DNA of 64,000 nucleotides. Source: Leucoraja erinacea. Taxonomy: Eukaryota. Both the position numbers and the translations under genes were made by a program. The notes below the pieces were generated by a model. That model made no database searches and had not been told where the DNA came from. It was given only the letters and a program-made list of their open reading frames with translations. Location of the stretch: contig NC_073385.1 of the NCBI RefSeq assembly GCF_028641065.1, forward strand, positions 46,748,001 to 46,812,000, in the 5' to 3' direction. This document shows, piece by piece, positions 3,111-63,989 of the stretch (its first letter is position 1; each line of letters opens with the position of its first letter).

Positions 3111-3742
3111 TGCTGACAAACGAGAAGAGTGTAGATGTGCCAACAGGTCTCCTTTTCATCTCTGGCCTTTGTCCATCCATCTGACAATCAAACCCCCTCA
3201 CCTGCAACCACCTATCTCATGCCAGGTTTTGTCCTGCCCCCACCTCTATCCCAGCCTTCTGCCCTCTACAATCACTCTGAAAAAGTGTCCTGACCAGAAA
3301 TGTCACCTGTCCATTCCGTCCACAGGTGCTGCCTGATGCACTGAGTTCCTCCAGCACTTTGTGTTTTAGTCATTGAAATAAAAACCTTTTCAAAGTGGCA
3401 AGACAGCACTGATATGGCATGTGGCCTCTTGCAGTGCCATCAGCTTTCATAAATTTATGGGGCTGATATTCATACTTTGTCTCAGGATTGAAATTAATTG
3501 AAGACATCATCCAGGAAATTTTGTAATGAGTTTGAGACTGTGGATAGGGGCAGTGGCAGGGTTAGAGTTGGGGTTGGGGAAAATGGGGTCGTGCAGTGGT
3601 GCAGGAAATGCTGAAACAACCAGAATTGATACAGAATAAAATATATTTGTTTGGTAAATATCTGCTTCAATTAGAACTGTAGTAGGAGATTTCTTAATTG
3701 GACCTTTAAACTCTCATTAAAAATGGTGTTTTGTATTTACAG

Positions 3743-18117: not shown

Positions 18118-18358
18118 TGTATGCTCAGCCAATTATCAGCAAAGCTAAGCCTGATTTGCTGAGAAACCAATTCATTCCAACATTGGAAAAGCTGAAAAAG
18201 AAAGCAATAAAGGTTGTACAGGAGGAAGAACAAATGAAAGCAGAGTGCAAGGTGGATTTCCAGGAAACTGAGTTACTAATCCTTGATGAATTTGCTGTTC
18301 TCTGCCGAGATCTCTATTCCTTCTATCCAATATTGATCCGCTTTGTGGATTATAACAG
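18118..18358 (+). CDS. RYR3: RYR3 exon, 241 nt (V)[11 protein letters not shown]...LIRFVDYN(R)
   Basis: tctccag|TG, AG|gtaaaa. Confidence 0.96.
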
Positions 18359-18426
18359 GTAAAATTACCAACATGTTTATTATGTACCAAATTCTTACAA
18401 ATGTTTATCTTGTTAAAGATGATTCT

Positions 18427-20669
18427 TTACTACTTTACGATAGACCTACGGCAAGAATATTAACTAACAATATGATATCTCCAAAATTTTACTTATCAAG
18501 GGGTAATAGGCAAGGTTGTGCCTTATCACCATTGCTATTTGCCCTTATGATGGAACCGCTGGCCGAAAAGATTAGAAATCACCCGAATATTCACGGATAT
18601 AACACTAAGGACTAAAAGAATAAAATTTCATTATACGCTGATGATATCCTTTTATATATTACTAATACACAAATGAGTATGCCCACCTTATTAACACTAA
18701 TTGAGGAATTCGGCTCTTTTTCAGGATATAGAATAAATTGGAATAAAAGCGAAATTATGTCTTTAAAACCACAGGATTCGAGACACTTACTAAAATTCCC
18801 CTTCAAAATTGCAACAGAAAAATTCAAGTACCTGGGTATTCAAATTACGAGAAGACACAAATCATTATTTAATGCCAATTTTTTGCCACTATTAAATAAA
18901 CTGAATGATATGATTAAATTTTGGAAAATGCTCCCGCTCTCATTGATAGGTAGAATTAACGCTATAAAAATGACTTTCTTACCACAATTAATATATTTGT
19001 TTCAAGCGATCCCAATATATATTCCAAAATACTTTTTCAAAAAACTAGGTTCTACTATCACTAATTTTATATGGGATTACAGAGCACACAGAATTCAACA
19101 AAAGCATTTGTGTAAACCTAAAGAAGTTGGGGGTTTATCATGACCTAACTTTATGTATTACTACTGGGCAGTGCATATTAAGAACATAATGTACTGGGTG
19201 GATAGTTCCACTCAGCAGTTGGAGTGGATAAGAATGGGGAAAGAGGAGTGCTATCCGCACGATATAGGAACGATCTTGCTCTCACCGATTAAATTGAATA
19301 GTATAATATATAAGAAAAACCCAATTATTCACAATGCAATAAGAATTTGGAAACAAATAAAAGTATCCTTGAAATTAAATAATCTATCAGTACTAACCCC
19401 ACTATTGAACAATCCCGCATTCAAACCATCTCTCATCGACAAAACATATCAACAATGGGATAGACTGGGGATTAGGAAAGTAGGGGATATGTATGAATTG
19501 GGCAAACTGTTATCATTTCAACATTTAAAATTAAAATTTAAACTGAAGTATAATCAATATTTTAAATATATACAGATATGTGACTTTATGAAGAAATATA
19601 CACATAGATTTCAAACTATATTTTTAGACCCTTTAGAAGAAGCAATGAATATTAAGGCTGATTCAGAAAAACTAATATCATACTTTTATAATAATAAATA
19701 GAGAATTGCCCTCAACAGAAGCACTAAGAGAAGATTGGGAACAAGAGCTAATGATAAAGATCTCGAAGAATAGATGGGAAAAGTATCTGATGAACACACA
19801 TAATTGTTCTATTAATGCAAGACATAATTTAATTCAATTCAAATTATTATATAGACTATATTATTCAAAAACAAAGTTGAATAAATTTTATCCAACGTCT
19901 CTCCCAGATGCGATAAATGTTTGTTTCAAAACGCTAATATAACACATTCATTTGTAGGATGTACAAAGTTGAATAAATTTTGGAGCGATATATTTGATAT
20001 ATTTACAAAGCTTTTCACGTCGAGAATAAAACCTAAAACCGAATGGATTATATTTGGAATAATAGTAGAAGATATCAATTTAAATAAAGACCAAAACGTT
20101 TTTTTAAATTATGGGTTAATAATTAGAAAGAAATTGATACTTAAATTTTGGAAAAATACAACCATACCAACTGTTAAAATGTGGATTAGGAATATGATGG
20201 ACATAGCACGCCTTGAAGAAATGGGACTCCGACTAATAGATAAATATGACCGATTCTTAAGGAGGTGGTCTCCTTTCATCGACTTTTTGGAATCATGTGA
20301 TGCAGCGGTACCGTAAAGATTACTGATTTCAGTTCATGCCGTGGATAGATCTACATCTCCGAATAAATATTTGAAAATTTCTCTTTTAAGGGGCCTTCTC
20401 TCCTATTTCTACTTTCCACTTTTTCTTTTTTTTTTATATACACACTTCACGTTTTTCTATTCTCTACCATCTATTTTTCCGCTTTTTCCCCTCTCTATTG
20501 TTTTCTTTTTCTTGTCCTGCTTACTTCCTTCTCAAAACATAAAACTAGAGGTTGTACATAGAATGGATTACGGTATGACATAGTTGGCACCTAAAATTAG
20601 GTTCCACTGTACTGTTTTGTACTGCATTAACTTCTAATAAAATAAACAAAAAAACAAACAAAAAAAAAA
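18427..20669 (+). mobile_element. 5'-truncated L1/Tx1-clade LINE (ORF2 RT, YADD, C-terminal CCHC, 3'UTR, poly-A)
   Basis: [30 protein letters not shown]; poly-A tail; TSD atgattct at 18419 and 20670; few stops or frameshifts. Confidence 0.93.
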
Positions 20670-32912: not shown

Positions 32913-33155
32913 GAAGTCTTTTAAGCCCTGAATTCCCAAATGAAGCTGTGTACATGTAGAGGACGAGAGTTCCTGTCAGATAAACTCCATTGAAAATAAC
33001 ACATTTAGGGAGCTTGTACTTTATTATGAGTCCTTTAATCTCTGAATGTTCTAATCAATCCTAATTTTAATAATGGCACGCACCATTAGGACACAGTATT
33101 TTCCTGGCAAATCTGGCCCTTCATTAAGCAAGTAATTTTTTATTTTTTTTTTAAG

Positions 33156-33268
33156 GTGGAGCAGCCACTGCGGTCAAAGAAGACAGGCTGGCAAAAGCTC
33201 TTGTCCAAACAACGCAAAAGAGCAGTGGTTGCCTGCTTCCGGATGGCACCACTTTATAACCTGCCCAG
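33156..33268 (+). CDS. RYR3: RYR3 exon, 113 nt, calmodulin-binding segment [37 protein letters not shown](R)
   Basis: (t)n aag|GTG, AG|gtagaa; RyR CaM-binding motif. Confidence 0.96.
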
Positions 33269-33287
33269 GTAGAAGTGATGTTGTGTT

Positions 33288-33322
33288 CTATATGTGTGTG
33301 TATATATATATATATATATATA
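33288..33322. repeat. (TG)n(TA)n microsatellite
   Basis: Directly visible, 20 nt after the CaM-binding exon donor. Confidence 0.9.
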
Positions 33323-34015
33323 CATAATATATCTCAAGAAACAACTGTAATGAATACCTGTAATGATCATTTCTATTTATTCGTTATCTTATTTGCCTAC
33401 TCTCTTGAATTTTTATTTATTTATTTAATTATCAGCTTTCATTGGATAAAGCTTCCTTTTATATATTAACAATCACTCCCAATCTTTATTTCCAATCTTT
33501 AAGTCTGCTTCCATGTTACGTTCCTTGTTCCAGAAGATGAGCAATGACCTGTACTTTAATGTTTGGACTAAGAACATCCTTAGTAACTTTTCCCTGTGAG
33601 CTTTTCGTCCTCCTTTTCCATAAGAAAGTTTCTGATTCAATTTGGAGCCCTAATGATGCCAAGAGTTGGGTTGAGATGGTCATGTGAGAAATTACATTGT
33701 AAACCTATTTCTTTTAAGTTATTGTTAACTGTGAGATGCTTGCCAAACAGCTTTTATATTACTGTAAAGAGGTTTGTGAAGCTAGTCAATAAATCATGTA
33801 TGTCCATGATATTCACCTTAGGCACTATATCTATGCACATTTGTCTTTGGCAAACACATATTTACATACTTTTAAAGAAGTCAGTTTAATACTGTGAATT
33901 AATTGCAGGAACATTGCATTCATTCACAGTACATGGAGAAGTATCCCACAGTTAATTCAGAAACAACTGTGCTTTTAAATTGATCAATGCAAAAAAATGT
34001 ATCCCTTTTCTTTAG

Positions 34016-34115
34016 ACACAAAATTAACATTTACTTCCTGAACGCCTATCAACGTCTGTGGCTGGAAAAGCTATATAAGAACACTGACTTTGAGAATCTT
34101 ATCGTCTGTTTGACG
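34016..34115 (+). CDS. RYR3: RYR3 alternative (mutually exclusive) exon A, 100 nt (R)HKINIYFLNAYQRLWLEKLYKNTDFENLIVCLT
   Basis: cccttttctttag|A, ACG|gtaaag; open frame; same phases as, and paralogous to, exon 35006..35102. Confidence 0.85.
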
Positions 34116-35005
34116 GTAAAGTAACATTTGATTGATAGACACTGCTTCCTGTCCTGTGCAAATATTCTCCTTGGCACACCAACCGTGTTCAGTTTGTACA
34201 GTAAACCTTACAGAATCTGATTGGTCAATACATCAACCAAAACCCTCTGCAATCTTGCACGGAGAAAGATATAATGAATAATGCAAGTGTTCAAACAGCT
34301 ATCCACACACTTTCAGACATCTTATGATGTCTTTACTATGATAAAGTTGATATACTAAAATTGGTCATTGATACAGTATAGGCTGTGTATCTGCATTATA
34401 GCACATGAAGGATTCATTGAATCATTGAGGGTAACGGATTTTTACCAGTATATGAACCAGTACAATGTTAAGTTTTCATCTCATCTTATGCGGGTTACTT
34501 TTGCACAGAAGATGCTGATGCAATAACAATAATATATATATTTGAGATATTGGAGGAAAGGTAGGCTGGATGCACCAATTAAAACAGTCCTTAAAGATTC
34601 TAGAATTATTTTGTTGACTGTTACCAATACATGAGCTAATTGCAGTGTAATCAAAAACTATAATTAAAATAAATGAGCTCAATGACATCCGTACCTAATC
34701 AGAATAGCGAGTGTCTGCTTATGATGGAACTGCCTTCATCCTATTTCTGTTTCCTCTTGTTTTTCTTTCACTTCAGTCATATATGAACATCTAAACATTT
34801 GGGGACCATTCTCTACACCATTCATACTTTAATTAATGTTATCATGATATGTGACCGTGAAACACCATTGACCAATCAGAGGGCTGAAGTTGTACAAATC
34901 TCTACTAATTAACTTTAACTGTTATTTCAAATAATAAGTGTCCCTTAATCTACTAAAAGCTGTGTCTCACTCCTCCCAATTTTACTATACCCTCCCGCTT
35001 CCTAG

Positions 35006-35102
35006 GCATCGTGCTGTTAATCTCTTCCTTCAGAGTTATCAGAAATCATGGATAGAGACAGAGGAGTACTCATTTGAGGAGAAACTAATTGAGGACTTAG
35101 CT
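35006..35102 (+). CDS. RYR3: RYR3 alternative (mutually exclusive) exon B, 97 nt (R)HRAVNLFLQSYQKSWIETEEYSFEEKLIEDLA
   Basis: cttcctag|G, GCT|gtaagt; canonical RyR-like version. Confidence 0.95.
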
Positions 35103-35939
35103 GTAAGTACTGGCACCTGTGCAACTGGTTTCGACCTCCAGCACAAGTGGCCATGCTGCATTCTGCAAGTAGTGCTGTGGCCAAGCTGCCTACAAAATGT
35201 GCAACCTTTCTCTGTCGATTATCAAAGATTGGTTTTGGGGGTAGTTGTTTTCTCTTGACGCTTTGCATTGGAAGCAGGAATGAAAACCTGGTTACTGTGA
35301 ATGGTAGGTACCTTTTGAGCTGAGTAAGATGGACTGGCTTTTGCACTTATCAGCTTGTACTTGACACCGAATCGGAGTAACACACAGTGGAAGTAATAAT
35401 TAGGTAGATGTCTGCAAGAATTGATTGTTCTGGAGTAACAAAGTAAACAAATTGAAAGGTTTTTTTCTGTGAGTGAGATTTGATCTGTAGAATGCAATTT
35501 ATAAATGAGTTTCTACTCACAAAATATTTTTATCTTTTAAGTATTACTTTCACCTCTTTCTCTGTAAAAATTATTTAGCCCAGAGGGTGGCAACTGACCT
35601 ACTTCTAGACCACTGCCAATGTGCCCTGCAAAACTTTCCCAGGAGGCATTGAGGAGTTACATACAATAATCGTGCATAATTTCCTTGCCCGTCCAGATGT
35701 AGAAGTACGTCAGTTTCCATTTTAAAGCTCAGACAGTTGCCATAGCTCCAAAACCTCAATGTATGTCTGTGGTGGAGCAATGTCATTAGCTACTAACTTT
35801 TATTTTCCATTGTATATGTCATAGTATGAGAGAGGACCCATGGCTCTGAATATTAATATGCATTGGAAAGCTATGCTGCATGTTTAATTATAAAATAATA
35901 GATCACTTAGTGTGTTACAAGGCTTTGAATAACCAGAAA

Positions 35940-36500
35940 TTTGAGAAATGGTATTAGGACTGGCCCACTTAGCCCAGACTCTTCTCCACCCTCCAACAAT
36001 ATGATGGCTAATGTTCTACATCAACACCATTTTCATGCGCTGTCCTCGTATCTCTTGCTTTCTCTACTCTCCAGCAACCTATCTATCTCAGTTTGTAAAG
36101 CAGTTATTGACTGGGCTGCCACACTTTAGTGGGTAGAAAATTCCAAAGATTCACCACCGAGTGAATTTAAAAAAAAATCTTGTTGTTTCAATATTAATGT
36201 GTTTATCTCCCATTTAGAGAACATCCCAGACTCTATACTCAGGAGAAACATCCTCCCTCCAACGACTTTGTCGATCCCTCAAAGTATTTTATATGTCTTC
36301 ATGAGATTAGGTCCCATTCTGCTAAATTCTTGTGTTTCGAGTCCCAGCCTGCTCAGTGCCTACACTTGTGATACACCTAGCACCCTGGCAACCAGTCTGA
36401 TTAACCTTTGCTGCACTTCTTATATAGCAAGCAGATTGTTATAATAAGGAGACCAAAATTGTCCAAGCGCAGTCTCATCTGGATCCTGCATAATTGTAGT
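35940..36500 (-). mobile_element. Old CR1-like fragment
   Basis: Reverse CR1 RT-end motifs, highly diverged. Confidence 0.6.
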
Positions 36501-36914
36501 TTTCTCTTGTTCATATCATAACAAATTGGCAGTAAAGCAGGTCACATAAAATTATCTTCATCAGAGGTTGTATAAGAGCTTTGTAACAAACTATCAGATC
36601 TTAATTTTAGTTGATATGTGATTCTGGAGTTTTATAAATTGCATTGAATGTGAATGTGTTACTAGGCTATGCTTGCCTGTGTACTATTCTGTGCTGAATG
36701 TGAAGGGTATAAGGACACCACTTTTAGTAGTTGAAATATTTTTTGCAAGATTTATTGTGTTGCAATTTCATTTATCAAGTGTACGATTACATTATAGTTC
36801 ACATTGAGCAGTGTATTGTGATACCTGGAATAATGTTAAGTACGTGAAAGATAGCATTTGCTTACTTGCAAGATAAAAGATAGATTGTAACAAAAGCAAA
36901 AATATTAAGATAGA

Positions 36915-37110
36915 CACAAAATGCTGGAGTAACTCAGAGGGACAGGCAGCATATCTGGAGAGAAAGGATGGGTAACTTGTCTGAACAAGGATCTCGACCC
37001 GAAACGTCACCTATTCCTTCTCTCCAGAGATTCTGCCTATCCCGTTGAGTTACTCTAGCATTTTGTGTCTATCTTCGGTTTAAACCAGCATCGGCAATTT
37101 CTTCCTACAC
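36915..37110. mobile_element. Short palindromic Penelope-derived element
   Basis: Inverted arms; exact TSD aatattaagataga at 36901 and 37111. Confidence 0.8.
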
Positions 37111-37879
37111 AATATTAAGATAGAGTCTGGTTACAGGTTTGTTCTGCTGGGAGAATTTGTACTGATAATTAAAGTCTGCTATTCTGGGATGAAAATAAAT
37201 TAGTTTTCTATTGGTATGGTCACGTTGTTAACATTACTGATTTAAGCCATTCTAACTTAGCTTTATTTGGATGTTACTTTCATTTCTACAGATATCAAAG
37301 CAGTCCAAAACCACAGGTCCTGGACAATGCTTCGTTCTTTGCTGATAATTAGCTTGACTCGCTTGCCACAATGACCAAGCAGTAACCAACCAGTACAAGT
37401 GAAATTCTAACAACAGTTCCTTTTCAACTATAATCACATTAATAGTTCTTCCTGCATTGATCAGAAAGTCATTTTGATCCGCCACATAAATGCCATGGTT
37501 ACCACTGGTGGTCTCAGGCTCATTATTCAGTAATGAATGTCACTTCCTGACTCTCAACAGCTTTGAGAGCAACAGCCAAATAACAGTTGTTCAGTAGTTC
37601 AGCATCTCATCCTCTGGTCTAAATACTGATCCTTGGCACCTTGCCTGCAGCATGTACTGCCTACAAGATGCACTGCAGCAATTAAATGCACAGGTGCAAC
37701 AAAACACAAGCCAGTTTCCCTACCGAGTCACCACATGCCATTCTGATTACGGGTCAAAAACTGCAAAATTGTCTAGTTAAAAACAATAAGCAATTCTACC
37801 TGCTCTGGTTCATTACAGCAACCTTCCACTACCACATCAGGCCAATTCGGGACTCATAACGGATGCTGCCCTTAACAGT

Positions 37880-38163
37880 GAGGCACAGGGTAGAGCCGCA
37901 GCCTCACAACACGATCCTGATCTTGGGTGCTGTCTATGTGGAGTTTGCATGTTCTCCTGTGACTGCCTGGGTTTCTTCCAGGTGCTCCAATTTCCTCCCA
38001 CACCCCAAAGACTTGCTGGTTTGTAGGTTAATTGGCCCTCTGTAAAAATTACCCCTAGTGGGACAACATCGAAGTAGTGTGAGCGGGTGATCGATGGTTA
38101 GCGTGGACTTGGTGGGCTTAATGGGTGTTTCCGTGCTATATCTCTAAACTAAACAAAACAAAA
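37880..38163 (+). mobile_element. tRNA-derived SINE (HE1-like)
   Basis: gtggagtttgcatgttctcc core; (CTAAA)n tail. Confidence 0.8.
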
Positions 38164-40709
38164 CTGGTGCCTGCTGTGAGAAGAAAATTGCTTGGCAATG
38201 AATTAACATAGAAAGAGCCTTGCCAACATACACATCTAAACTGTCGTACATTCCAAGTTACATGACTAAGTAAATGTGGAAGTCTTGAGAAAGTAGGATT
38301 ATTTATTTGGGTACAAATGATTCTTCTTGCCCCAATTAGCTTTAGATGACTTCCCCTCTAACATAGTGTGAGGTGCAAGAACCTTGATTCTTCACTATTA
38401 GTCTCCAATCAGAGGTTCTCCAACAATGAATCATGCCCGGCCAATGTTTCAGCAAAGCCTGTAAAATATCCAGACTAGGACTGATAAGTGGCAGAACTTG
38501 GGACAATGTTAGTGCTGGCCATTGGCACGTGTGAGCTGGAAGTCATCCAGTCAGCCTCTCCTAAATGTCAGTGGTGCCACCACACCAGTGACTTCTGTAT
38601 CCCCTACCACCTCCATCATGGGAGCTGTGGTTAATCAGTATTATCAGGTTAATCCTGATTACAACAGGTTGAAGTTAGACACTTTGTCCTTCCTGGCTCA
38701 TCTGTTGATTCTTCAAAACTTCCCCACAATTCTAAAGCGCATATCAAAAACATGATAGACTGTAACACCTGACCTACATCCTGGCACAGTAACATTTTGA
38801 AAGCTAAACACTCAGTGCAGCAACACTGTGATGATATTACTGGAGCAAGTAACTAAAGACCGATGGGCCACGATGGCAGAAAGTTAAATTCATATGAATA
38901 AATAAATTGGGAATTAATAAGTTAGTTTCAGTAAAAGTGATTAGAAAACTGCTAGGTTGTTGTAAAAGCACAGTCAGTTCCCCAATGGCTTTTGGGGGGG
39001 GGGAAATTATCCGTCCTAACTTTGCTGGTCCTTCTCTGATCCCAGACCCACAGTCATGTGGTAGATTCGTAACTGAAATGAACTAGCAAGCCATTTACTT
39101 CACAGACATTCAGATGACTATTCAGTGCTGACACACACATCACATAATTATTATTTTTTTAAACCACACAAGACATTGGAATCTCATAGCAATTGAAAAC
39201 TGAATGGACATTTGATATCTTATAAGGAGGGAAGGGTGCAAACAAACAAACTAATGAAATCATTTGAACATGCAATGGGAAAATAAAATATAGCAAATGT
39301 TATTGGTGCAATATCAATGATTGAGCATCAACATGATTTGAGAACCAACAACTAACTGTCAGTTCAATTGCTGAATATTATAACAAGACAGAAGAACACA
39401 GCTGCTGAAAGCCATGCTGAACAGACCTGAGAATGTAATATCAGTAAAAAGTGGTAGGTTGAGAAAATGGGGGTGAGTATAGAATTTGTCAAAAATTGTA
39501 ATCACAGGAGTTGAAGGGAGGACCGCCTGGAAACAAGAGTATCCTGGCTTTCTTTGCTGAACCCAGAGTCCTGAGACACAAGATATGGTAAAAAGAACCA
39601 AAGCACATAACAAAAAAAACAAATTGCTGGAGGAACTCAGTGGGTTAGACAGCTGTTGTGGAGAGAAATGGACACCATTTTTGGGGTGGGACCCTTCTTC
39701 CCAACCTGAAATGTCATCTGTCCATTTTCCTCCACAGGTTCTGCCTGAATGGCTGATTCCTTCCAGCACTATGTTTTCTTGTTCAAATTTCCAGTGTCTG
39801 CAGTCTCTTGTGTCTTCCAGAAAAATAGAAGCCTTTACATGCTGCTTCTGACCCTGGATTCACATCCTGACAGCTTTGGCTTGGCAGTCCATCAATTATT
39901 CCCTGCTCAGATCTCAGAGTAATACTGCATATTGGGTCAGATGATAGAGGTAGAGCTTGATCCATTCAAGAAAGGATTGCAGTACATTGGTTCTGGTCTA
40001 CTTAAATGTTCAGTCAAGCCATGCAGGGTGAGAGGCCTGTTCACTAAACTCCCGTCCCATATTGATGGGTCACCCTGTCTAGTTTCCAGCAAGTAGAAGG
40101 AATTAAATTTCCTATACGATTCATACAAATACATTTCACTCCAATGTTAGAGAGCTTGGCAACTACACACACAAGGATTTATTGCTGGCCTTGGCCACAG
40201 GTCCAATGTTGATCGGACTTTGGAAAAATTCTCAATTTTTGTCATAAGCTAGTAAGTTAGTAGTGTTAGTAGTAATAAGTAGTGTTCCTTTTACACACTT
40301 CTCTGTTTCTTCAGTGCTGTCAAAATAACCTGTTTTGATTTTAACCAAACTACATATGTGCCATCTAATATCTGAGCATGCCTTGTAAGGTGACCTGTTC
40401 AAAAATGTTATTGTTTATTCAAAATATTACGATTTTCTTTTAATCACTTTGAAAACTGAGAAATCTCTAATCTGCTTAATCTACAAATTTATGATTGACA
40501 TGCTTTTTCTGTATTTTTAGCTGACAAAAATGATGCAAAGCTTTGTTAGCTATTTTCTATTTATTTTGTTTCCGTATTTCAAATGAGCAGCATTTTTGTT
40601 ACCACATATGATTTTTCTTGTGGTAATGGTACCCACTAGTTGTAATGTAGGCATTTTGTTGCACCCAAAACAAAACTTTCGTCCAAAACAAACCTCTAAA
40701 TATGCTCAG

Positions 40710-40816
40710 AAATCTGCAACTAAGTCAGAAGAGGAGGAGGAAGAATTTGACAAGACTCCTGATCCACTTCATCAGCTTATACTACACTTCAGTCGAACTG
40801 CCCTCACTGAGCGAAG
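40710..40816 (+). CDS. RYR3: RYR3 exon, 107 nt KSATKSEEEEEEFDKTPDPLHQLILHFSRTALTER(S)
   Basis: gctcag|AAA (weak pyrimidine tract), AG|gtatag. Confidence 0.92.
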
Positions 40817-41137
40817 GTATAGTAAGGATTTTATTCTGCTTTTGTAAAACCAATAATACTGATGAATCATTGCCCAATGATCTTCCAGCTTGTAATGAGA
40901 ACACCTTCCATAAGATCAATGATGTAAAAACATAAGAAACGGGACACTACTATTTTCTTTGAACCTGTTTCATTGTTCAGATTATACCTTTTTTTTCTCA
41001 TCCAATTTCCCATTCAAACCCTAGATAATTAAATTTTCAAAGTCACGCAATCTATTGATCTGAACAACTGAAGTAGAATATTCCAAAGGTGCACAACGTA
41101 CCAACTTATCCTAATATCAGTCCTAGGTGACTGGTCC

Positions 41138-44549: not shown

Positions 44550-44601
44550 TGCAATTGAAGAGGACCCCTTATACCTTGCATATGCAGACATGATGGCAAA
44601 A
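44550..44601 (+). CDS. RYR3: RYR3 exon, 52 nt AIEEDPLYLAYADMMAK
   Basis: gttacag|T, AAA|gtaagt. Confidence 0.94.
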
Positions 44602-45971
44602 GTAAGTTTTCTGGAATGCTGGAGAAGTTCAGCATTATTCATTATGTAAACATAAATACTGAAACTGTTTCTGTGGAAACCGTGTCTATGTCCTTGACTT
44701 TTTATCAACGTGAAGATGACAAAATGCAAACGGATAATGCTAAGGAACAGTGTAGAAGAAAGGCATCATTGCTCATCCTTTCACTTCAATTTGATTTTTT
44801 AAATGTGTGGAAATCAACAAATGCTTGTGCTTGGAAGCAAAATTAAATGGGTTTTGGTGGAGAGAAAAAAAGGTGTCCCTCAAACCACTCGCCTCAAAAG
44901 GGAGATAGGCATAACTATTATTTTACGTTTAACTCAAAGCATTTGAGTGCAATGAATAAAGTTGTCAAGGCAATATCCTTGAATACCAATGAATAGGTAT
45001 TCTGAAAAGTAAAGTAGATTGCTGAATATTGATTTGTAGCATGATCCAAGGGAACAATAGCGGATGGGTTGAACAGAGTGCTGCAGAGATTGGCAAGGTT
45101 ACCCATCATGTATGCACTGTGTGCCGAGCCCATACAAAATGAAGGTGGAATTGTTAATTTGTAAGGCACCAACAATGGACATTGAAAAGCAAAAATTACT
45201 GGCCTGAAATATTAACAATTTTTCTCCCTCCACTTGTTCTGCTTGGCCTACTGAATATCATGAGCGTTTTCTGGGTCTAACTAGCAATGAATAAGAGTGA
45301 TAGAGGGTTGCTGTAGAATTTTCACCATCCGCACATTCTTGCTGTTCTTGTCTACGATCGTTGCTAGTTATAGAAATGCACATTAATTTAAATTTTGCAG
45401 CTTTTGGAGAACCAAGCATCCATGGTCTTAAAAGTATGGGTCAAACACTGTCAGTGTCTCTAAGCCTCATGTTATACAGGCTTCAATTGGGTGATGATTT
45501 AAGGGGCTATATTCCAGCGTGTCTAGTGCTGGGAATCTACTATGAAATATAAATGTCAAAATGCACTGTGATAATGGGAATATTACATATAGCTGCAGTA
45601 ATCATGTCATGTTTCTTCTTTCAAGAAAATAGGCAGTGCCAATATTTCCATACAATTGTATATGTGTAATTGTACTTTAAATTCAGATCAGCCCATTAAT
45701 AGTTAAGCATGTTTGATCCTTTCCTAGACAGTGAAAGATTTATTTACAGGATGTGCAATAAGCGAGTTTGGTATTCCGATTGTGCATGCCCAGGTCATAG
45801 GTCACTCGAGAAAAACATTCTTGGAAGCTGAGCTGTTGCGTTTATACAGACCTGCGTTTCCGATCTGCATACAGGCAACATCTCTGGAGAAGGGATGTCA
45901 AACTCCAACCCGATACATCACCTATTCCTTTTCTCCAAAGATGCTGCCTGTTCCATTTTGTGCGTATCCCC

Positions 45972-47125
45972 GTTGGGCATGCACAGGGCACGTACGCGAG
46001 GATGCTCTTCATTGACTATAGCTCTGCATTCAATACGGTCATCCCCACCAAGTTCACCATCAAACTCCACCAGCTAGGCCTCAGCTCGCCGATATGCGAT
46101 TGGATCCTGAACTTTCTGACGGAGCGACCGCAGGCAGTGAGACTGGGCCCGCACCTGTCCTCCACTATCACCCTGAGCACCGGCACACCACAGGGCTGTG
46201 TACTAAGCCCCATGCTCTACTCCCTCTTCACTCATGACTGTGTTCCTGCATTCGACACCAACACCATCGTGAAGTTTGCAGACGACACAACAGTGATTGG
46301 GCTGATCACCAACGGTGATGAAACAAAATACAGAGCGGAGGTGCAGAACCTGGCGGACTGGTGCGCATGTAACAACTTGTCACTAAACACCTCCAAGACC
46401 AAGGAGTTGATTATTGACTTCAGGAGGTCCCATAATGGAGAATACGCCCCAATCTCCATTTACGGGGAAAGTGTGGAGAGAGTGTCCAGCTTTAAGTTTC
46501 TGGGCACTCACATTTCAGAGGACCTCACATGGTCCACCAACCCCACTGCGCTGGTCAAGAAGGCACAGCAACGACTGTTCTTCCTGAGGACATTAAAAAA
46601 GACTGGTCTGCCCCAACAGCTGCTGACAAACTTCTACCGCTGCACCACAGAGAGCATATTAACGTATGGCATCTCTGTGTGGTATCTCAGCTGCACGGAG
46701 ACGGAGAGGAGAGCTCTTCAGCGTGTCATCCATAGAGCGCAGAGGATTATTGGGACACAGCTACCAGCCTTGGAGGGCATCTACCACACACGGTGCCTCA
46801 GGAAGGCCGTCAGCATCCTTAAAGACTCCTCACACCCTTGTAACGGACTCCTCACACCCTTGTAATGAACTACTTCCCTCCGGCAGACGTTATAAGGCCT
46901 TCTACGCCTGAGCCTCCAGACTCGGAAACAGCTTTATTCCCAGAGCTATAGCGGCTCTGAACCGGCTCTGCTGAGTGCCCCCATCCCCCCTGGACTGTCT
47001 CCCTCAGATGGTCACGTTGCACAGTTTATTTATTTATTTTATTTTTTTGACATCGGTTGGAAGCTGAATACTAAATCTCATTGCACTGATGTGCAATGAC
47101 AATAAAAGATATTATCATTATTATT
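45972..47125 (+). mobile_element. 5'-truncated Rex1/Babar-clade LINE with nearly intact RT
   Basis: ORF 45960..46865 [27 protein letters not shown]; AATAAA + (TTA)n tail; a 20-bp duplication (46824/46846) breaks the ORF end. Confidence 0.9.
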
Positions 47126-55975: not shown

Positions 55976-58140
55976 CTTCTTCCTTCGTGTCCATCATCTA
56001 TGTTTCATGTTCGGCCAGTGGACAGCCTTTTTGTTTGCCACCACTATATCTTCCAGGCAGCATTGTTCACCAAGAAGTGGGCATCTTAGTAGGTGTGGCA
56101 GAGATTGTACAGATATTCCACATTCACATTCTGTGTCTGCCACATCTGCATAGCCCCATTTGTTCATATTGGTCTTGCATCGGCCCATCCTTTTGAGCCT
56201 ATTGAGGATCTTCCAGTCACCAGGTGGTAGCTGTTCCTTGGTGGGGATAGGCCGTGTGCTGACGTGGGGTAGAAGGATGAAAAGCCAAAGAAAAGAAGTG
56301 GAAGCCAAATAACCGAACGGAATACAAAGCCGTAATGCCAAATAACCGGATACATACGAAGCCGAAACGCCAACTAACCGAAAGGATGGGACGCCGAAAA
56401 GCAAACTCACCGAAAGGCCGCTCTGCCGAAAGGCCAACTCACCGAAGGGCTGCACCGCCTACAAGCCAACATGATGTCGCCGGGGGGGCGGAACTTGTCA
56501 GCGATTGGTCCAGACCCCCGCGTCCATCACAAGCCATATGTGACTGGGCACTCTGAACCCGAGCACCAAGTTGTAAGCGGCCAAAGCATGCTTCGGGACA
56601 ACCCCCACTCTCTCACGGCCACGGCCGCCCTCCGCCTCGTCTCCCCCATGCGGCCGCACTGTGACGAGCTGTGAGTCGGAAGCGCCGGGTGGAACAGAGG
56701 TGTGGGACAGGCTGGTCCCTCTTCCCACCCAGAGTCACTGACTGCGATGCACCGCCCTCGGACCCCAACCCCCACACAGACCCCAGTGGAACAGGCAGCA
56801 TCTCTGGAGAGAAGGAATGTGTGGCATTTCGGGTCGAGACTCTTCAGTCTTCAGGTCTGAAGAATGGTCTCAACCCGAAACACCACCCATTTCTTCTCTC
56901 CAGAGATGCTGCCTGTTCCGCTGAGATAAAATTGTTCGTTGTCATGCACACTTGTCATCGGGCTGGCAGGGAATTTGTGTGTCCCCCGCCACATGTTTTA
57001 AAAGCGATTTACTATGCCAATGCCCCGAGTCTGTTCCTGCGGCCAGGGGGGGGGGTGAATCACTCAGTGTGTGGGTGTCGAGGGGTGTAGGTCGGGGGGG
57101 TGAATCACCCTGGTGTTGGGGTTGGGGTCCGATGGCAGTGCATTGCGGTCAGTGACTCTGGGTGGGTGGCGGGACCAGCCTGTCCCACAACTCTGCTCCA
57201 CGTGTTGCTGCCGACACACAGCCCATCACAGTGTGGCCGCATGGGGAAGGCAAAGCGGAGGGCGGCCGTGGGGTAGTGGGGGCTGTCCCGAGGGATGCGC
57301 TCCTTCGGCCGCTTACAACTTGGCGCTCCGGTTCAGATTGCCCAGTCACCTTTGGCTTGTGTTGGAAAATGACCACCACCCTCCCTTCCACTGGCCAGTG
57401 TTGTGATGGACGCGGGGATCTGGACCAATAGCTGACAAGTCCCCCCCCCCGGCGACATCATGTCCGTTATTTGATTTTTCGGCAGAGCGGCCATTCAGTG
57501 AGTTGGCTTGTAGGCGACACAGCCTTTCGGTGAGTTGGCGTCTCGGCAGAGCGGCCTTTCGGAGAGTTTGCTTTTAGGCATCCCACCCTTTCGGTTAGTT
57601 GGCGTTTCGGCTTCGTACACTTCTGGTTACTTGGCGTTTTGGCTTTGTTTCCGTTCGGTTATTTGGCTTCCACTTCTTTGCTTCGGGTTCACTTCCTTCG
57701 GCGCCACGTCCGGGTACCGGGATAGGCATCTTTACGTGGTGGTGGTCTTCACTGCGTTTCTTTTTCCGCAAGGCTAATCTGGTTGCTTGAGGAGGCTGTG
57801 ACAGTGACTGGACTGTGTGGAGGAAGCTCTTCCTCGACTTCAGCCGTTTGGGGGCTGGATGATGGGAGTGACAGGAATGGCGAGTGTCCCTAACTTGCCT
57901 GCTACTGACAACTGATCTGCGGATTCCTGGTGGAGCAATACCGGCCAAGACATGCAAGCTATTCACATCCGTCGCTTTTAGGCAGCCAGTGATGCATCTG
58001 CAGCTGTCATTGAGGGTGGTATCAACTTTCTTCGCATGAGATGACTTCTCCCAAACAGGACAAGCATATTCTGCAGCAGAGTAGCACAGCGCAAGAGCAG
58101 TTGACGGCAGTGTGGATGCATTGGTACCCCACGACGATAC
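55976..58140 (-). mobile_element. Vingi/Ingi-like LINE fragment split by a fold-back element
   Basis: ALCYSAAEYACPVW, LAGIAPPGIRR, CECG; peptide rejoins at MPIP|TKEQ; exact 14-bp TSD aggtagatacaggt at 55962 and 58141. Confidence 0.8.
56253..57718. mobile_element. Non-autonomous fold-back DNA transposon (Mutator/MULE-like)
   Basis: Inverted arms of about 530-610 bp with 20-bp-period subrepeats (gccaactcaccgaaag); exact 9-bp TSD gggataggc at 56244 and 57719. Confidence 0.8.
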
Positions 58141-59581: not shown

Positions 59582-60202
59582 TAACAGTATTCTACACACA
59601 TTAGGGAAAATTTACACTTATGCCAAGCCAATTTAACTACAAACCTGTACTACTTTGGACTGGGATGAAGCCAAAGGTCTCGGAGAAAACCCATGCGGTC
59701 ATGGGGAGAACGTACAAACTCCGTACAAAACAGCACCTGTGGTTGAGATTGAACCCGGGTCACCAGCTCTGCAAGCGCTGTAATGCCCCTGTCCCACTTA
59801 GGAAACCTGAACGGAAACCTCTGGAGACTTTGCGCCCCACCCAAGGTTTCCGTGCGGTTCCCGGAGATTTTTGTCAGTCTCCCTAATGGTCGAAAGTGGC
59901 TTCCGCTTCTTCTATGTTCCGGCATTTATTTCAAAAAAATTAAAAACCAGCCGCGACTAAAAATAGGTTGCCGTTTTAAAAATCGGTAATTTTTTAGTCG
60001 AAGCCGGTTGCGATGCTAATTGAAGGTGGTTGCTGGAGGTTGCAGGTAGTGGAAGGTAAGACGTATTTTTCACCCAGTTTTATTTCACCAGGGAGGTCTT
60101 ACCTTCCACTACCTGCAACCTCTGGCAACCACCTTCAACTAGCATCGCAACCAGCTTCGACTAAAAAATTACCGATTTTTAAAACGGCAACCTATTTATA
60201 GT

Positions 60203-60768
60203 GTTCAAGAAGGAACTGCAGATGCTGGAAGATCGAAGGTACACAAAAATGCTGGAGAAACTCAGCAGGTGCAGCAGCACCTATGGAGTGAAGGAAATAG
60301 GCAACGTTTCGGACCAAAACCCTTCTTCAGACTGATGGGGGGTGGGGGGGAGAAGGAAGGAAAAAGGGAGGAGGAGGAGCCCGAGGGCGGGGGGGATGGG
60401 AGGAGACAGCTCGAGGGTTAAGGAAGGGGAGGAGACAGCAAGGGCTAGCAAAACTGGGAGAATTCAACGTTCATGCCATCCGGACGCAAGCAACCCAGGC
60501 GGAATATGAGGTGCTGTTCCTCCAATTTCCGGTGTTGCTCACTCTGGCAATGGAGGAGTCCCAGGACAGAGAGGTCGGATTGGGAATGGGAGGGGGAGTT
60601 GAAGTGCTGAGCCACCAGGAGTTCAGGTAGGTTATTGCGGACTGAGCGGAGGTGTTCGGCGAAACGATCGCCCAACCTCCGCTTAGTCTCTCCGATGTAA
60701 ATCAGCTGACATCTAGAGCAGCGGATGCAGTAGATGAAGTTGGAGGAGATACAGATGAACCTTTGTCG
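60203..60768 (-). mobile_element. Truncated Penelope (GIY-YIG end + pLTR) inside the MITE arm
   Basis: ORF 60445..60675 homologous to 14463..14789; TSD cctatttatagt at 60191 and 60769. Confidence 0.88.
60301..60332 (-). ncRNA. Minimal hammerhead ribozyme motif, antisense to RYR3
   Basis: Reverse complement GTCTGAAGAAGGGTTTTGGTCCGAAACGTTGC. Confidence 0.65.
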
Positions 60769-61439
60769 CCTATTTATAGTCTATTATATATATAATCTAT
60801 TTATAGTCGCGGCCGGTTTTTAATTTTTTATAATAATCGCCGGAACATAGAAGAAGCGGAAACCACTTTCGACCATTAGGGAGACTGACAAAAACCTCCG
60901 GGAACCGCATGGAAACCTTGGGTGGGGCGCAGAGTCTCCAGAGGTTTCCGTTCAGGTTTCCGAAGTGGGACAGGGGCATAAGGCAACAACGCTACTCCAG
61001 TGCCACCATACCTCTTCGGTTAACAAATGGGCTTAGCTTATAGTTTGGAGCTTCTAGTATTTTGCCTTTCCATTTATTATCAAACCTACAGTATTTGTTT
61101 ACATTAGCTGAAACTATCGTGATGAATTCTGAAGCTTGCAACTCAATACCCATTCAAGACAGGTTTTCATGACCCGAAACGTTCCTTCTCTCCAGAGATG
61201 CTGCCTGTCCCGCTGAGTTACTCTAGCATTTTGTGTGTACCTTTTTTTTTTACAACCTTTACAGCAACTCATATTTGTGAGTGGTGAAGCTATCGCTTTC
61301 ACAAGAGAAGAACACAGAGAATCTAAGGATTAAACCCTGAAGAGTCTATAAATCCCACTAGCAAATATCACTTTAAACTAATTAGACAAGCACCTTGAGT
61401 GTATACAAAGAACACTCCTTGAGTCTGAAGAAAGGTCCT

Positions 61440-62063: not shown

Positions 62064-63989
62064 CAGTGCATTCAGAAAGTATTCAGACCTCTTCACATTT
62101 TGTTACATTACAGGCTTATTCTAAAATGGATTAAATCATTTGTTTTATCATCAATCTACACACAATACCTCATAATAAAAAAGCGAAAACAGGTGTTGAA
62201 AAATGTTTGCAAAGTAATTAAAAATAAATAACTGAAATACCACATTTACATAGTATTCAGACCCTTTACTCAGTACTTTGTTGAGGCATCTTTGGCAGCG
62301 ATTATCGCCTCAAGTCTTCTTGGGTATGACGCTACAATGGCACACCTGTATTTGGGTAATTTCTCCCATTCGTCTCTGCAGATCCTCCCAAGCTCTGCCA
62401 GGTTGGATGTGGAGCGTCGATGCACAGCCATTTTCAGGTCCCTCCAGAGATGTTTGATCGTGTTCAAGTCAAGTCTCTGGCTGGGCCACTCAAGGACATT
62501 CACAGGCTTGTCACAAAGCCACCTGCATTGTCTTGGCTGTGTGCTTAGGGTCAGCGTCCTGTTGAAAGGTGAACCTCCGCCCCAGTCCAATGTCCTGAAC
62601 ACTCTGGAGCAGGTTTTCATCAAGGATCTCTCTGTATTTTGCTCCGTTCAATCTTTCCCTCAATCCCGACAAGTCTCCCAGCCTGCTGTTAAAAATTCAG
62701 GCTGAGTGGCCCAGCCATAGCCTGGACTTGAACCCGATCGAACATCTCTGGAGGGACCTGAAAATAGCTGTGCATCGACGCTCCCCATCCAACCTGGCAG
62801 AGCTTGGGAGGATCTGCAGAGAAGAATGGGAGAAATTACCCAAATACAGGTGTGCCAAGGTTGTAGCATCATACCCAAGAAGACTTGAGGCTATAATCGC
62901 TGGCAAAGATGCCTCAACAAAGTACTGAGTAAAGGGTTTGAATACTTATGTAAATGTGATATTTCAGTTATGTCTTTTTAATGGCAGGCTGGGAGACTTT
63001 TCCCACAGCATGATGCTGCCACAACCATGCTTCATCGTAGGTATGGTATTGGCCAGGTGATAAGCGGTGCCTGGTTTCCTCCAGACGTGACGCTTGGCAT
63101 TCAGGCCAAAGAGTTCGATCTTGGTTTCAGACCCAGAGAGTCTTGTTTCTCACGGTCTAAGAGTCCTTTCGGTGCCTTTTGGCAAACTCGAAGTGGGCTG
63201 TCGTGTGCCTTTTACTTAGGAGTGGCTTCTGTCTGGCCACTCTACCATAAAGGCCCCCATTGTTGGAGTGCTGCAGATATCGTTGTCCTTCTGGAAGGTT
63301 CTCCCATCTCCACAGAGGAACTCTGGAGCTCTGTCAGAGTGAGCATCGTGTTCTTGGTCACCTCCCTGACCAAGGCCCTTCTCCCCGATTGTTCAGTTTG
63401 GCCGGGCGGCCAGCTCTATGAAGAGTCCTAGGTGATTTCAAAGTTCTTCCATTTAAGAATGACGGAGGCCATTCCATTTAACTTCTTCCATTTAAGAATG
63501 ACTGTGCTCTTCTGGACCTGCAATGCTGCAGAAATTGTTTTATACTTTTCCTCAGATCTGTGTCTCGGAGGTCTGTAGCCAATTCCTTCATCTTCATAGC
63601 TTAGTTTTTGCTCTGACATGCACTGTCAACTGTGGAACCTTATATAGACAGGTGTGTGCCTTTCCATATCATGTCCAATCAATTTAATTTACCACTGGTG
63701 GACTCCAATCAAGTTGTAGAAACATCTCAAGGATAATCAATGGAAACAAGATGAACCTAAGCTCAATTTTGCGTGTCATAGAAAAGGGTCTGAATACTTA
63801 TGTAAATGTGATATTTCAGTTATTTCTTTTTAATTACTTTGCAACAATTTCTAAACACCTGTTTTCACTTCTTCATTCGCGGTATTGTGTAGATTGATGA
63901 TAAAAAATAATAATCCATTTTAAAATAAGGCTGTAAAGTAACAAAATGTGGAAAAGGTGAAGGGGTCTGAATACTTTCTGAATGCACTG
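62064..63989 (-). mobile_element. Tc1/mariner IR/DR-type transposon, full length but rearranged and inactive
   Basis: TIRs of about 200 bp starting CAGTGCATTCAGAAAGTATTCAGAC with inner direct repeats; WPSQ..DLNPIEHLWRDLK transposase C-terminus; flanks are not the expected TA. Confidence 0.92.

Follow-up and report, generated by a model that had tools for sequence, protein, structure and literature searches.

Two similar short exons follow the RYR3 exon for the calmodulin-binding helix in the Leucoraja erinacea DNA analysed here (the window, 64,000 nucleotides). Are both of them used, and, if so, does a transcript carry one or the other? We conclude, with a probability of roughly nine in ten, that they are a tandem-duplicated, mutually exclusive pair that is orthologous to a pair in human RYR3 and likely guarded by nonsense-mediated decay (NMD), and that the swap likely tunes regulation of the channel. 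We refer to the upstream constitutive exon as U, to the alternative exons as A and B, and to the exons that follow as D and E (Table 1).

The host gene was originally identified as RYR3, and this holds. A 103-residue exon of the window scores 174 bits against RyR3 in the PDB, compared with 142 for RyR2 and 137 for RyR1, and RYR3 scores best in 15 of the 16 exons for which RYR1, RYR2 and RYR3 could all be compared. We also built a tree of 17 proteins, leaving out the swapped segment. RYR3 sequences are nearest to the gene, which lies outside bony-vertebrate RYR3 (support 86/91), while the deeper RYR3 node has no firm grouping. This position is consistent with a cartilaginous fish, in a tree that includes no named sequence from that group.

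The original prediction described a 100-nt exon with good splice sites and an open frame, 890 nt upstream of a 97-nt exon with the same phases, and all of these properties are seen in the sequence. Exon A has the boundaries tttag/A...ACG/gtaaag (slashes mark exon ends) and the stop-free translation HKINIYFLNAYQRLWLEKLYKNTDFENLIVCLT. Exon B is bounded by cctag/G...GCT/gtaagt, and the intron between them measures 890 nt. Their peptides are identical at 7 of the first 17 residues (E 8e-5, as a single comparison). When all six frames of the window are scanned with a profile of A- and B-type peptides, these two exons are the sole matches (63 and 42 bits, with 7.6 as the next best score). The exons are therefore adjacent, homologous, similar in length and equal in phase, as tandem-duplicated exons are. 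They also differ strongly in charge, A being much less acidic, as had been proposed (net charge +1 versus −4).

The frame is open in both U-A-D and U-B-D. The inclusion of both exons, or of neither, was predicted to shift the frame, and it does: U-A-B runs into a stop at 35018-35020, and U-D-E into one within exon E (Table 1). Either premature stop precedes later junctions, which is the arrangement of a frameshift- and NMD-guarded pair.

Table 1. Positions of the RYR3 exon pair, its flanking exons and associated elements in the window
Feature	Position	Strand	Remarks
Exon U, constitutive, calmodulin-binding helix	33156..33268	+	Phase 2 at end, AG/GT; contigs join U to A or B
Weak second partner of 5′ arm, over exon A branch-point candidate	33979..33988	+	−11.1 kcal/mol; absent from fish loci
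Exon A, mutually exclusive, probable RYR3-specific derived copy	34016..34115	+	100 nt, phase 2-0; U-A-D contig in X4
Exon A donor GTAAAG with in-frame TAA at +7..+9	34116..34124	+	Predicted U1 pairing with one bulged base
5′ arm of perfect 14-bp inverted repeat in A-B intron; reverse CCAAT box	34216..34229	+	12 letters kept in L002, at similar distance from A
Poly(A)-signal-like hexamers at 34578, 34663 and 34668, candidate	34578..34673	+	A-rich stretch; X15 reads reach 34601
3′ arm of the same repeat in A-B intron; forward CCAAT box	34867..34880	+	12 letters kept in L002
Exon B, mutually exclusive, type common to RYR1, RYR2 and lamprey RyR	35006..35102	+	97 nt, phase 2-0; U-B-D contigs in X1, X2
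Exon D, constitutive, downstream	40710..40816	+	Spliced contigs, open frame
Exon E, after D	44550..44601	+	Carries premature stop 44591-44593 when A and B are both skipped

Transcripts splice each exon by itself between the same flanks, in different organisms. We compared four RNA runs (X1, X2, X4 and X15, of 15 listed) with positions 33000-41000 of the window. Run X1, from the organism that best matches the window (organism A), contains a U-B-D contig with contiguous, exact junctions and 0 differences. The U-B-D contig of run X2 (organism B) has 4 differences in D. Run X4, from a relative (organism D), contains a U-A-D contig that has 0 differences over A, against 1 in U and 4 in D; this run is flagged as “probably DNA”, yet the contig is spliced. 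Exon A has zero depth in X1 and X2, as has exon B in X4 and X15, the latter a raw run.

Each of the four runs thus has one form only, across different organisms and with contigs that drop rare forms, as would be expected of a regulated either-or choice. None of the pieces listed holds A and B together, in agreement with the mutual exclusion that had been claimed. The four junctions put forward as a check are all present in contigs: 33268-34016 and 34115-40710 in X4 (organism D), and 33268-35006 and 35102-40710 in X1 and X2. This much of the check stands for contigs; the raw-read rows listed are dominated by repeats and contain no junction of either exon. The listed pieces include no A-form contig from organism A, the A form coming from the relative, organism D.

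Two further loci, L001 and L002, are genomic sequences from fish whose peptides match two bony-fish ryr3 types. In both, A precedes B in tandem, and the lengths are again 100 and 97 nt. Given that contigs splice A or B and that both fish loci retain the two exons at the same lengths, the pair is not a product of chance: A and B are real, homologous exons used as either-or alternatives. Relative to the two fish loci, the window peptides are identical at 18 and 15 of 33 residues for A, and at 24 and 23 of 32 for B.

The exon A peptides of fish, reptiles, birds and mammals all fall on one side of a branch with 100/100 support (9/9, with an alignment of only 33 columns). The window's exon A scores 83-107 against the 8 other A peptides, compared with 37 against its own B. 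On these alignments, exon A is orthologous across jawed vertebrates, and the proposed check of its peptide across vertebrates returns intact orthologues in fish and amniotes.

Might exon A nevertheless be a dead duplicate in this species, retained by slow evolution alone? The listed pieces hold no A-form contig from organism A, and A diverges from its fish counterparts faster than B does, both of which would fit such a relic. However, the frame of A is open, its length and splice sites are intact, and the relative, which differs at 1 position in U and 4 in D, has none in A and splices U-A-D. Orthologues are moreover retained in fish and amniotes. We consider a dead duplicate very improbable. 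Exon A shows 0 differences to the near relative and saturation versus fish.

Database searches separate the two types. In the PDB, the sole match of the exon A peptide is mink RyR3 (residues 3495-3525). The exon B peptide has 38 PDB matches, which are of the RyR2 and RyR1 types; the mink RyR3 chain is absent from them, and none is a B-form RyR3 chain. Exon U retrieves 95 proteins. An A-type segment comes next in 5 of them (a seal, a mammal-like record and three bony fish), and a B-type continuation occurs in RYR1, RYR2 and two lamprey records. All 27 full-length hits carry an A-type segment (27/27, from 12 reptile, bird and marsupial species). Used alone as a query, the exon A peptide retrieved nothing among longer proteins (4 candidates) and two ORFs among 50% representatives.

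Because RYR1, RYR2 and the lamprey records have the B type, and the A peptides form a single 100/100 clade within RYR3, B is likely the ancestral type, and A would be a derived copy that arose in RYR3. The exon B peptide of the window (35006-35102) scores 144 to RYR2 versus 133 to the B segment of rat RYR3, which is likely a retained ancestral state. Some database records treat the pair in other ways. Two mammal-like RYR3 records (P0016 and P0098) skip both exons, with a resulting frameshift, and three fish gene models (P0030, P0047 and P0054) wrongly chain exon A with part or all of B.

The pair itself is known from the literature, and a 1996 report by Marziali is said to describe these RYR3 exons in mink. 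In the available part of Hatje 2017, the human RYR3 pair is cluster 1006, with exons of 100 nt and 97 nt in frame 2-0 and an expression that differs among tissues (PMC5740500). Martinez Gomez 2021, in the text accessible to us, lists the event as number 180 (ENST00000634891/ENST00000634418; near human chr15 33,815,834-33,815,933, hg38) and dates its last common ancestor to Gnathostomata (PMC8373072). In view of the human pair in the former and the Gnathostomata date in the latter, the pair, its position and its age are already published and are not new.

The human pair shares with that of the window its position, its lengths of 100 and 97 nt, its frame of 2-0 and homologous peptides. It differs in belonging to another species, and exon B of the window resembles the RYR2 segment more than it does the B exon of bony-vertebrate RYR3. 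Two points of the original prediction are upheld. The HKINN-type alternative exon of mammals corresponds to the catalogued human 100/97-nt pair and to the A segment of mink RyR3, and an origin before the split of chondrichthyans and bony vertebrates agrees with the published date and with the pair in both fish loci.

Insect ryanodine receptors also substitute tandem exons. Their mutually exclusive exons lie at the SPRY2 site, and a second alternatively spliced site lies at the calmodulin region, according to the available part of PMC6026295. Unlike the vertebrate pair, the fly event affects another region, and the portion of PMC9741552 at hand files it as “different region, convergent”.

What does the switch exchange? 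The swapped segment, of 32-33 residues, corresponds to RyR1 3647-3677, where the shell-core linker ends and the core solenoid starts. The calmodulin anchors of RyR1 are W3620 and F3636, as stated in the accessible text of PMC9168041. Both are encoded in exon U, and the swapped exon begins 11 residues past the last of them, so that any effect on calmodulin would be indirect. The shell-core linker is contacted by calmodulin and S100A1 (PMC11228480, available part), and an indirect effect of the swap on the coupling of either protein through this linker is plausible.

The charge switch is a general one, in that 6 of 7 other A peptides are positive and 7 of 7 other B-type peptides negative, as in the window. 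Exchanging A and B just past the calmodulin-binding helix would likely modulate how the channel is regulated. We found no functional comparison of the A and B isoforms in the literature. An AlphaFold model of an A-form fragment, made with a 9-row alignment, has a pLDDT of 39.6 and is uninformative.

An A-form structure does exist, in that the mink RyR3 cryo-EM entries 9C1E and 9C1F contain the exon A segment at residues 3495-3525 (34017-34115 of the window). In the main text of the paper on the mink structure (PMC11452665), neither “splic” nor “exon” occurs. The PDB thus shows RyR3 solely in its exon A form, whereas RYR1, RYR2 and most of the RYR3 gene models examined are B-type. Since the solved RyR3 is the A form and RYR1 and RYR2 are of the B type, some of the features near the shell-core linker that have been ascribed to RyR3 in particular may in fact be specific to exon A.

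How might exclusion be achieved? In the mechanism that we favor, exon U is spliced to either A or B, and double inclusion or double skipping creates a premature stop that likely leads to NMD. Of the two donors, that of exon A is the weaker (GTAAAG versus GTAAGT in B), and A is for this reason likely the regulated choice, perhaps by tissue or stage. Two simple mechanisms were rejected. One is steric hindrance, given an intron of 890 nt, branch candidates at most 100 nt from B and an AG-free zone of 44 nt; the other is an incompatibility of U2 and U12 splicing, as the donors belong to GT-AG introns of the U2 type. The criteria for both (a donor-to-branch distance below 50 nt, or a U12-type donor) are those given in the available text of PMC5740500. 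Rfam has 0 matches in window positions 33000-41000. We found no RBFOX motif and one QKI-like motif, at 34904.

Decay might not act alone. The A-B intron contains a perfect inverted repeat of 14 bp (Table 1), and a long-range RNA helix between its arms could close this intron and be what mainly enforces exclusion, in the manner of ATE1. We regard it as possible, though doubtful, that such a helix assists exclusion, and hold the larger role to be no less tentative. A repeat of this length was reached in 1 of 300 shuffles, but when the window itself is cut into 890-nt tiles, 5 of 71 contain one. Pairing of the arms is predicted with a probability of 0.97 in the window intron. L002 keeps both arms as 12-mers and in order, which no shuffle matched (0/20000), but the predicted probability there is 0.000, and forcing the helix costs 10-16 kcal/mol at 37 °C.

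The other fish locus is similarly divided. L001 has nested helices at similar places with probabilities of 0.88-0.91, but it matches the arms by words of only 5 and 7 letters, which is at chance level (5506/20000 shuffles). If the helices are homologous, one base pair is U-A in the window, U-G in L002 and C-G in L001. Neither single-block alignments of the intron (p 0.12 and 0.19, not significant) nor whole-intron z-scores (−1.26 and 0.40) point to a conserved structure.

ATE1 exons 7a/7b likewise form a two-exon cluster with complementary intronic elements (R1R3/R3R4), of which R1 and R4 overlap splice sites, with pairing proven by mutation (PMC7797038, available part). By contrast, the arms in the window lie ~100 and ~125 nt from splice sites, are clear of the 3′ splice sites and have no conserved competing partner. 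Two conserved competing partners, as in ATE1 and Dscam, were not found across the three loci, where second partners are weak or displaced; in the fish loci, this comparison covered the 86 and 303 nt that precede A. The 5′ arm in L002 has extra partners at 481-527, a local hairpin just upstream, and at 1514-1537, a site ~210 nt past B (−18.8 kcal/mol). The window has no site like the latter behind exon B.

We found no published RNA structure at the RYR3 cluster, although the large tables of PMC8052449, beyond its available part, may list a human pairing. The accessible parts of PMC5740500 and PMC8373072 contain no mention of the intron repeat or of the stop at +7..+9, and the former states that RNA structures of this kind seldom last across long evolutionary distances. 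A conserved intron repeat would offer a concrete handle on how an old switch stays exclusive.

Both arms of the repeat double as CCAAT boxes. The conserved letters could hence belong to NF-Y sites in a promoter or enhancer within the intron, and would be complementary because one motif stands there in two orientations. We rate this reading as unlikely, somewhat below the helix. Both arms match the NF-Y consensus, the 64 kb contain 4 such boxes, 2 of which fall here, and CCAAT is kept in both L002 arms. However, the identity spans 14 letters and so extends past the motif, L001 has no CCAAT at these places, the best L002 partner carries CCAGT, and the intron is 35% GC with 8 CpG. A two-part element, GTGACC followed by CATTGACC, occurs 70-200 nt before exon B at 34852-34880 in the window, 1286-1337 in L001 and 1011-1053 in L002.

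The donor of exon A has a further property. Reading past it, the third intron codon is an in-frame stop in all three loci, namely TAA in the window, TAG in L001 and TGA in L002, and a stop at this codon also occurs in five ORF records (P0096, P0097, P0022, P0100 and P0101). In addition to its role in the pair, exon A could thereby act as a composite last exon, such that read-through of the donor and intronic polyadenylation would yield a pore-less RyR3 fragment. Poly(A)-signal-like hexamers lie downstream of A. In the poly(A) run X15, the sense reads (~10) fall on U, on A and in the intron as far as 34601, while B and D are bare.

These reads come from 6% of one run of another species, and could equally be nascent RNA or the product of internal priming on the A-rich stretch; the X15 rows listed include no pile-up of read ends. 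Bulged U1 pairing at the exon A donor is predicted in all three loci and explains why +7 is a conserved T and +8 a purine. Read-through ORFs also exist for the RYR2 exon (P0045). We therefore think a short form improbable. It is also quite unlikely, in our judgment, that the A-B intron contains a helix that holds the switch exclusive and has lasted since the split of cartilaginous and bony fish, together with an exon A that serves as a last exon yielding a pore-less fragment.

Other parts of the window contain repeats. The B-D intron contains high-copy short repeats at 36907-37113, 37900-38160 and 39600-39800, which are abundant in all four RNA runs. LINE-like reverse-transcriptase remnants, read from translations, lie in introns at 18337-20313 and 45728-46862. 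Long, near-perfect inverted repeats at 56516-57417, 59934-60829 and 62261-62999 are likely transposon ends or back-to-back copies.
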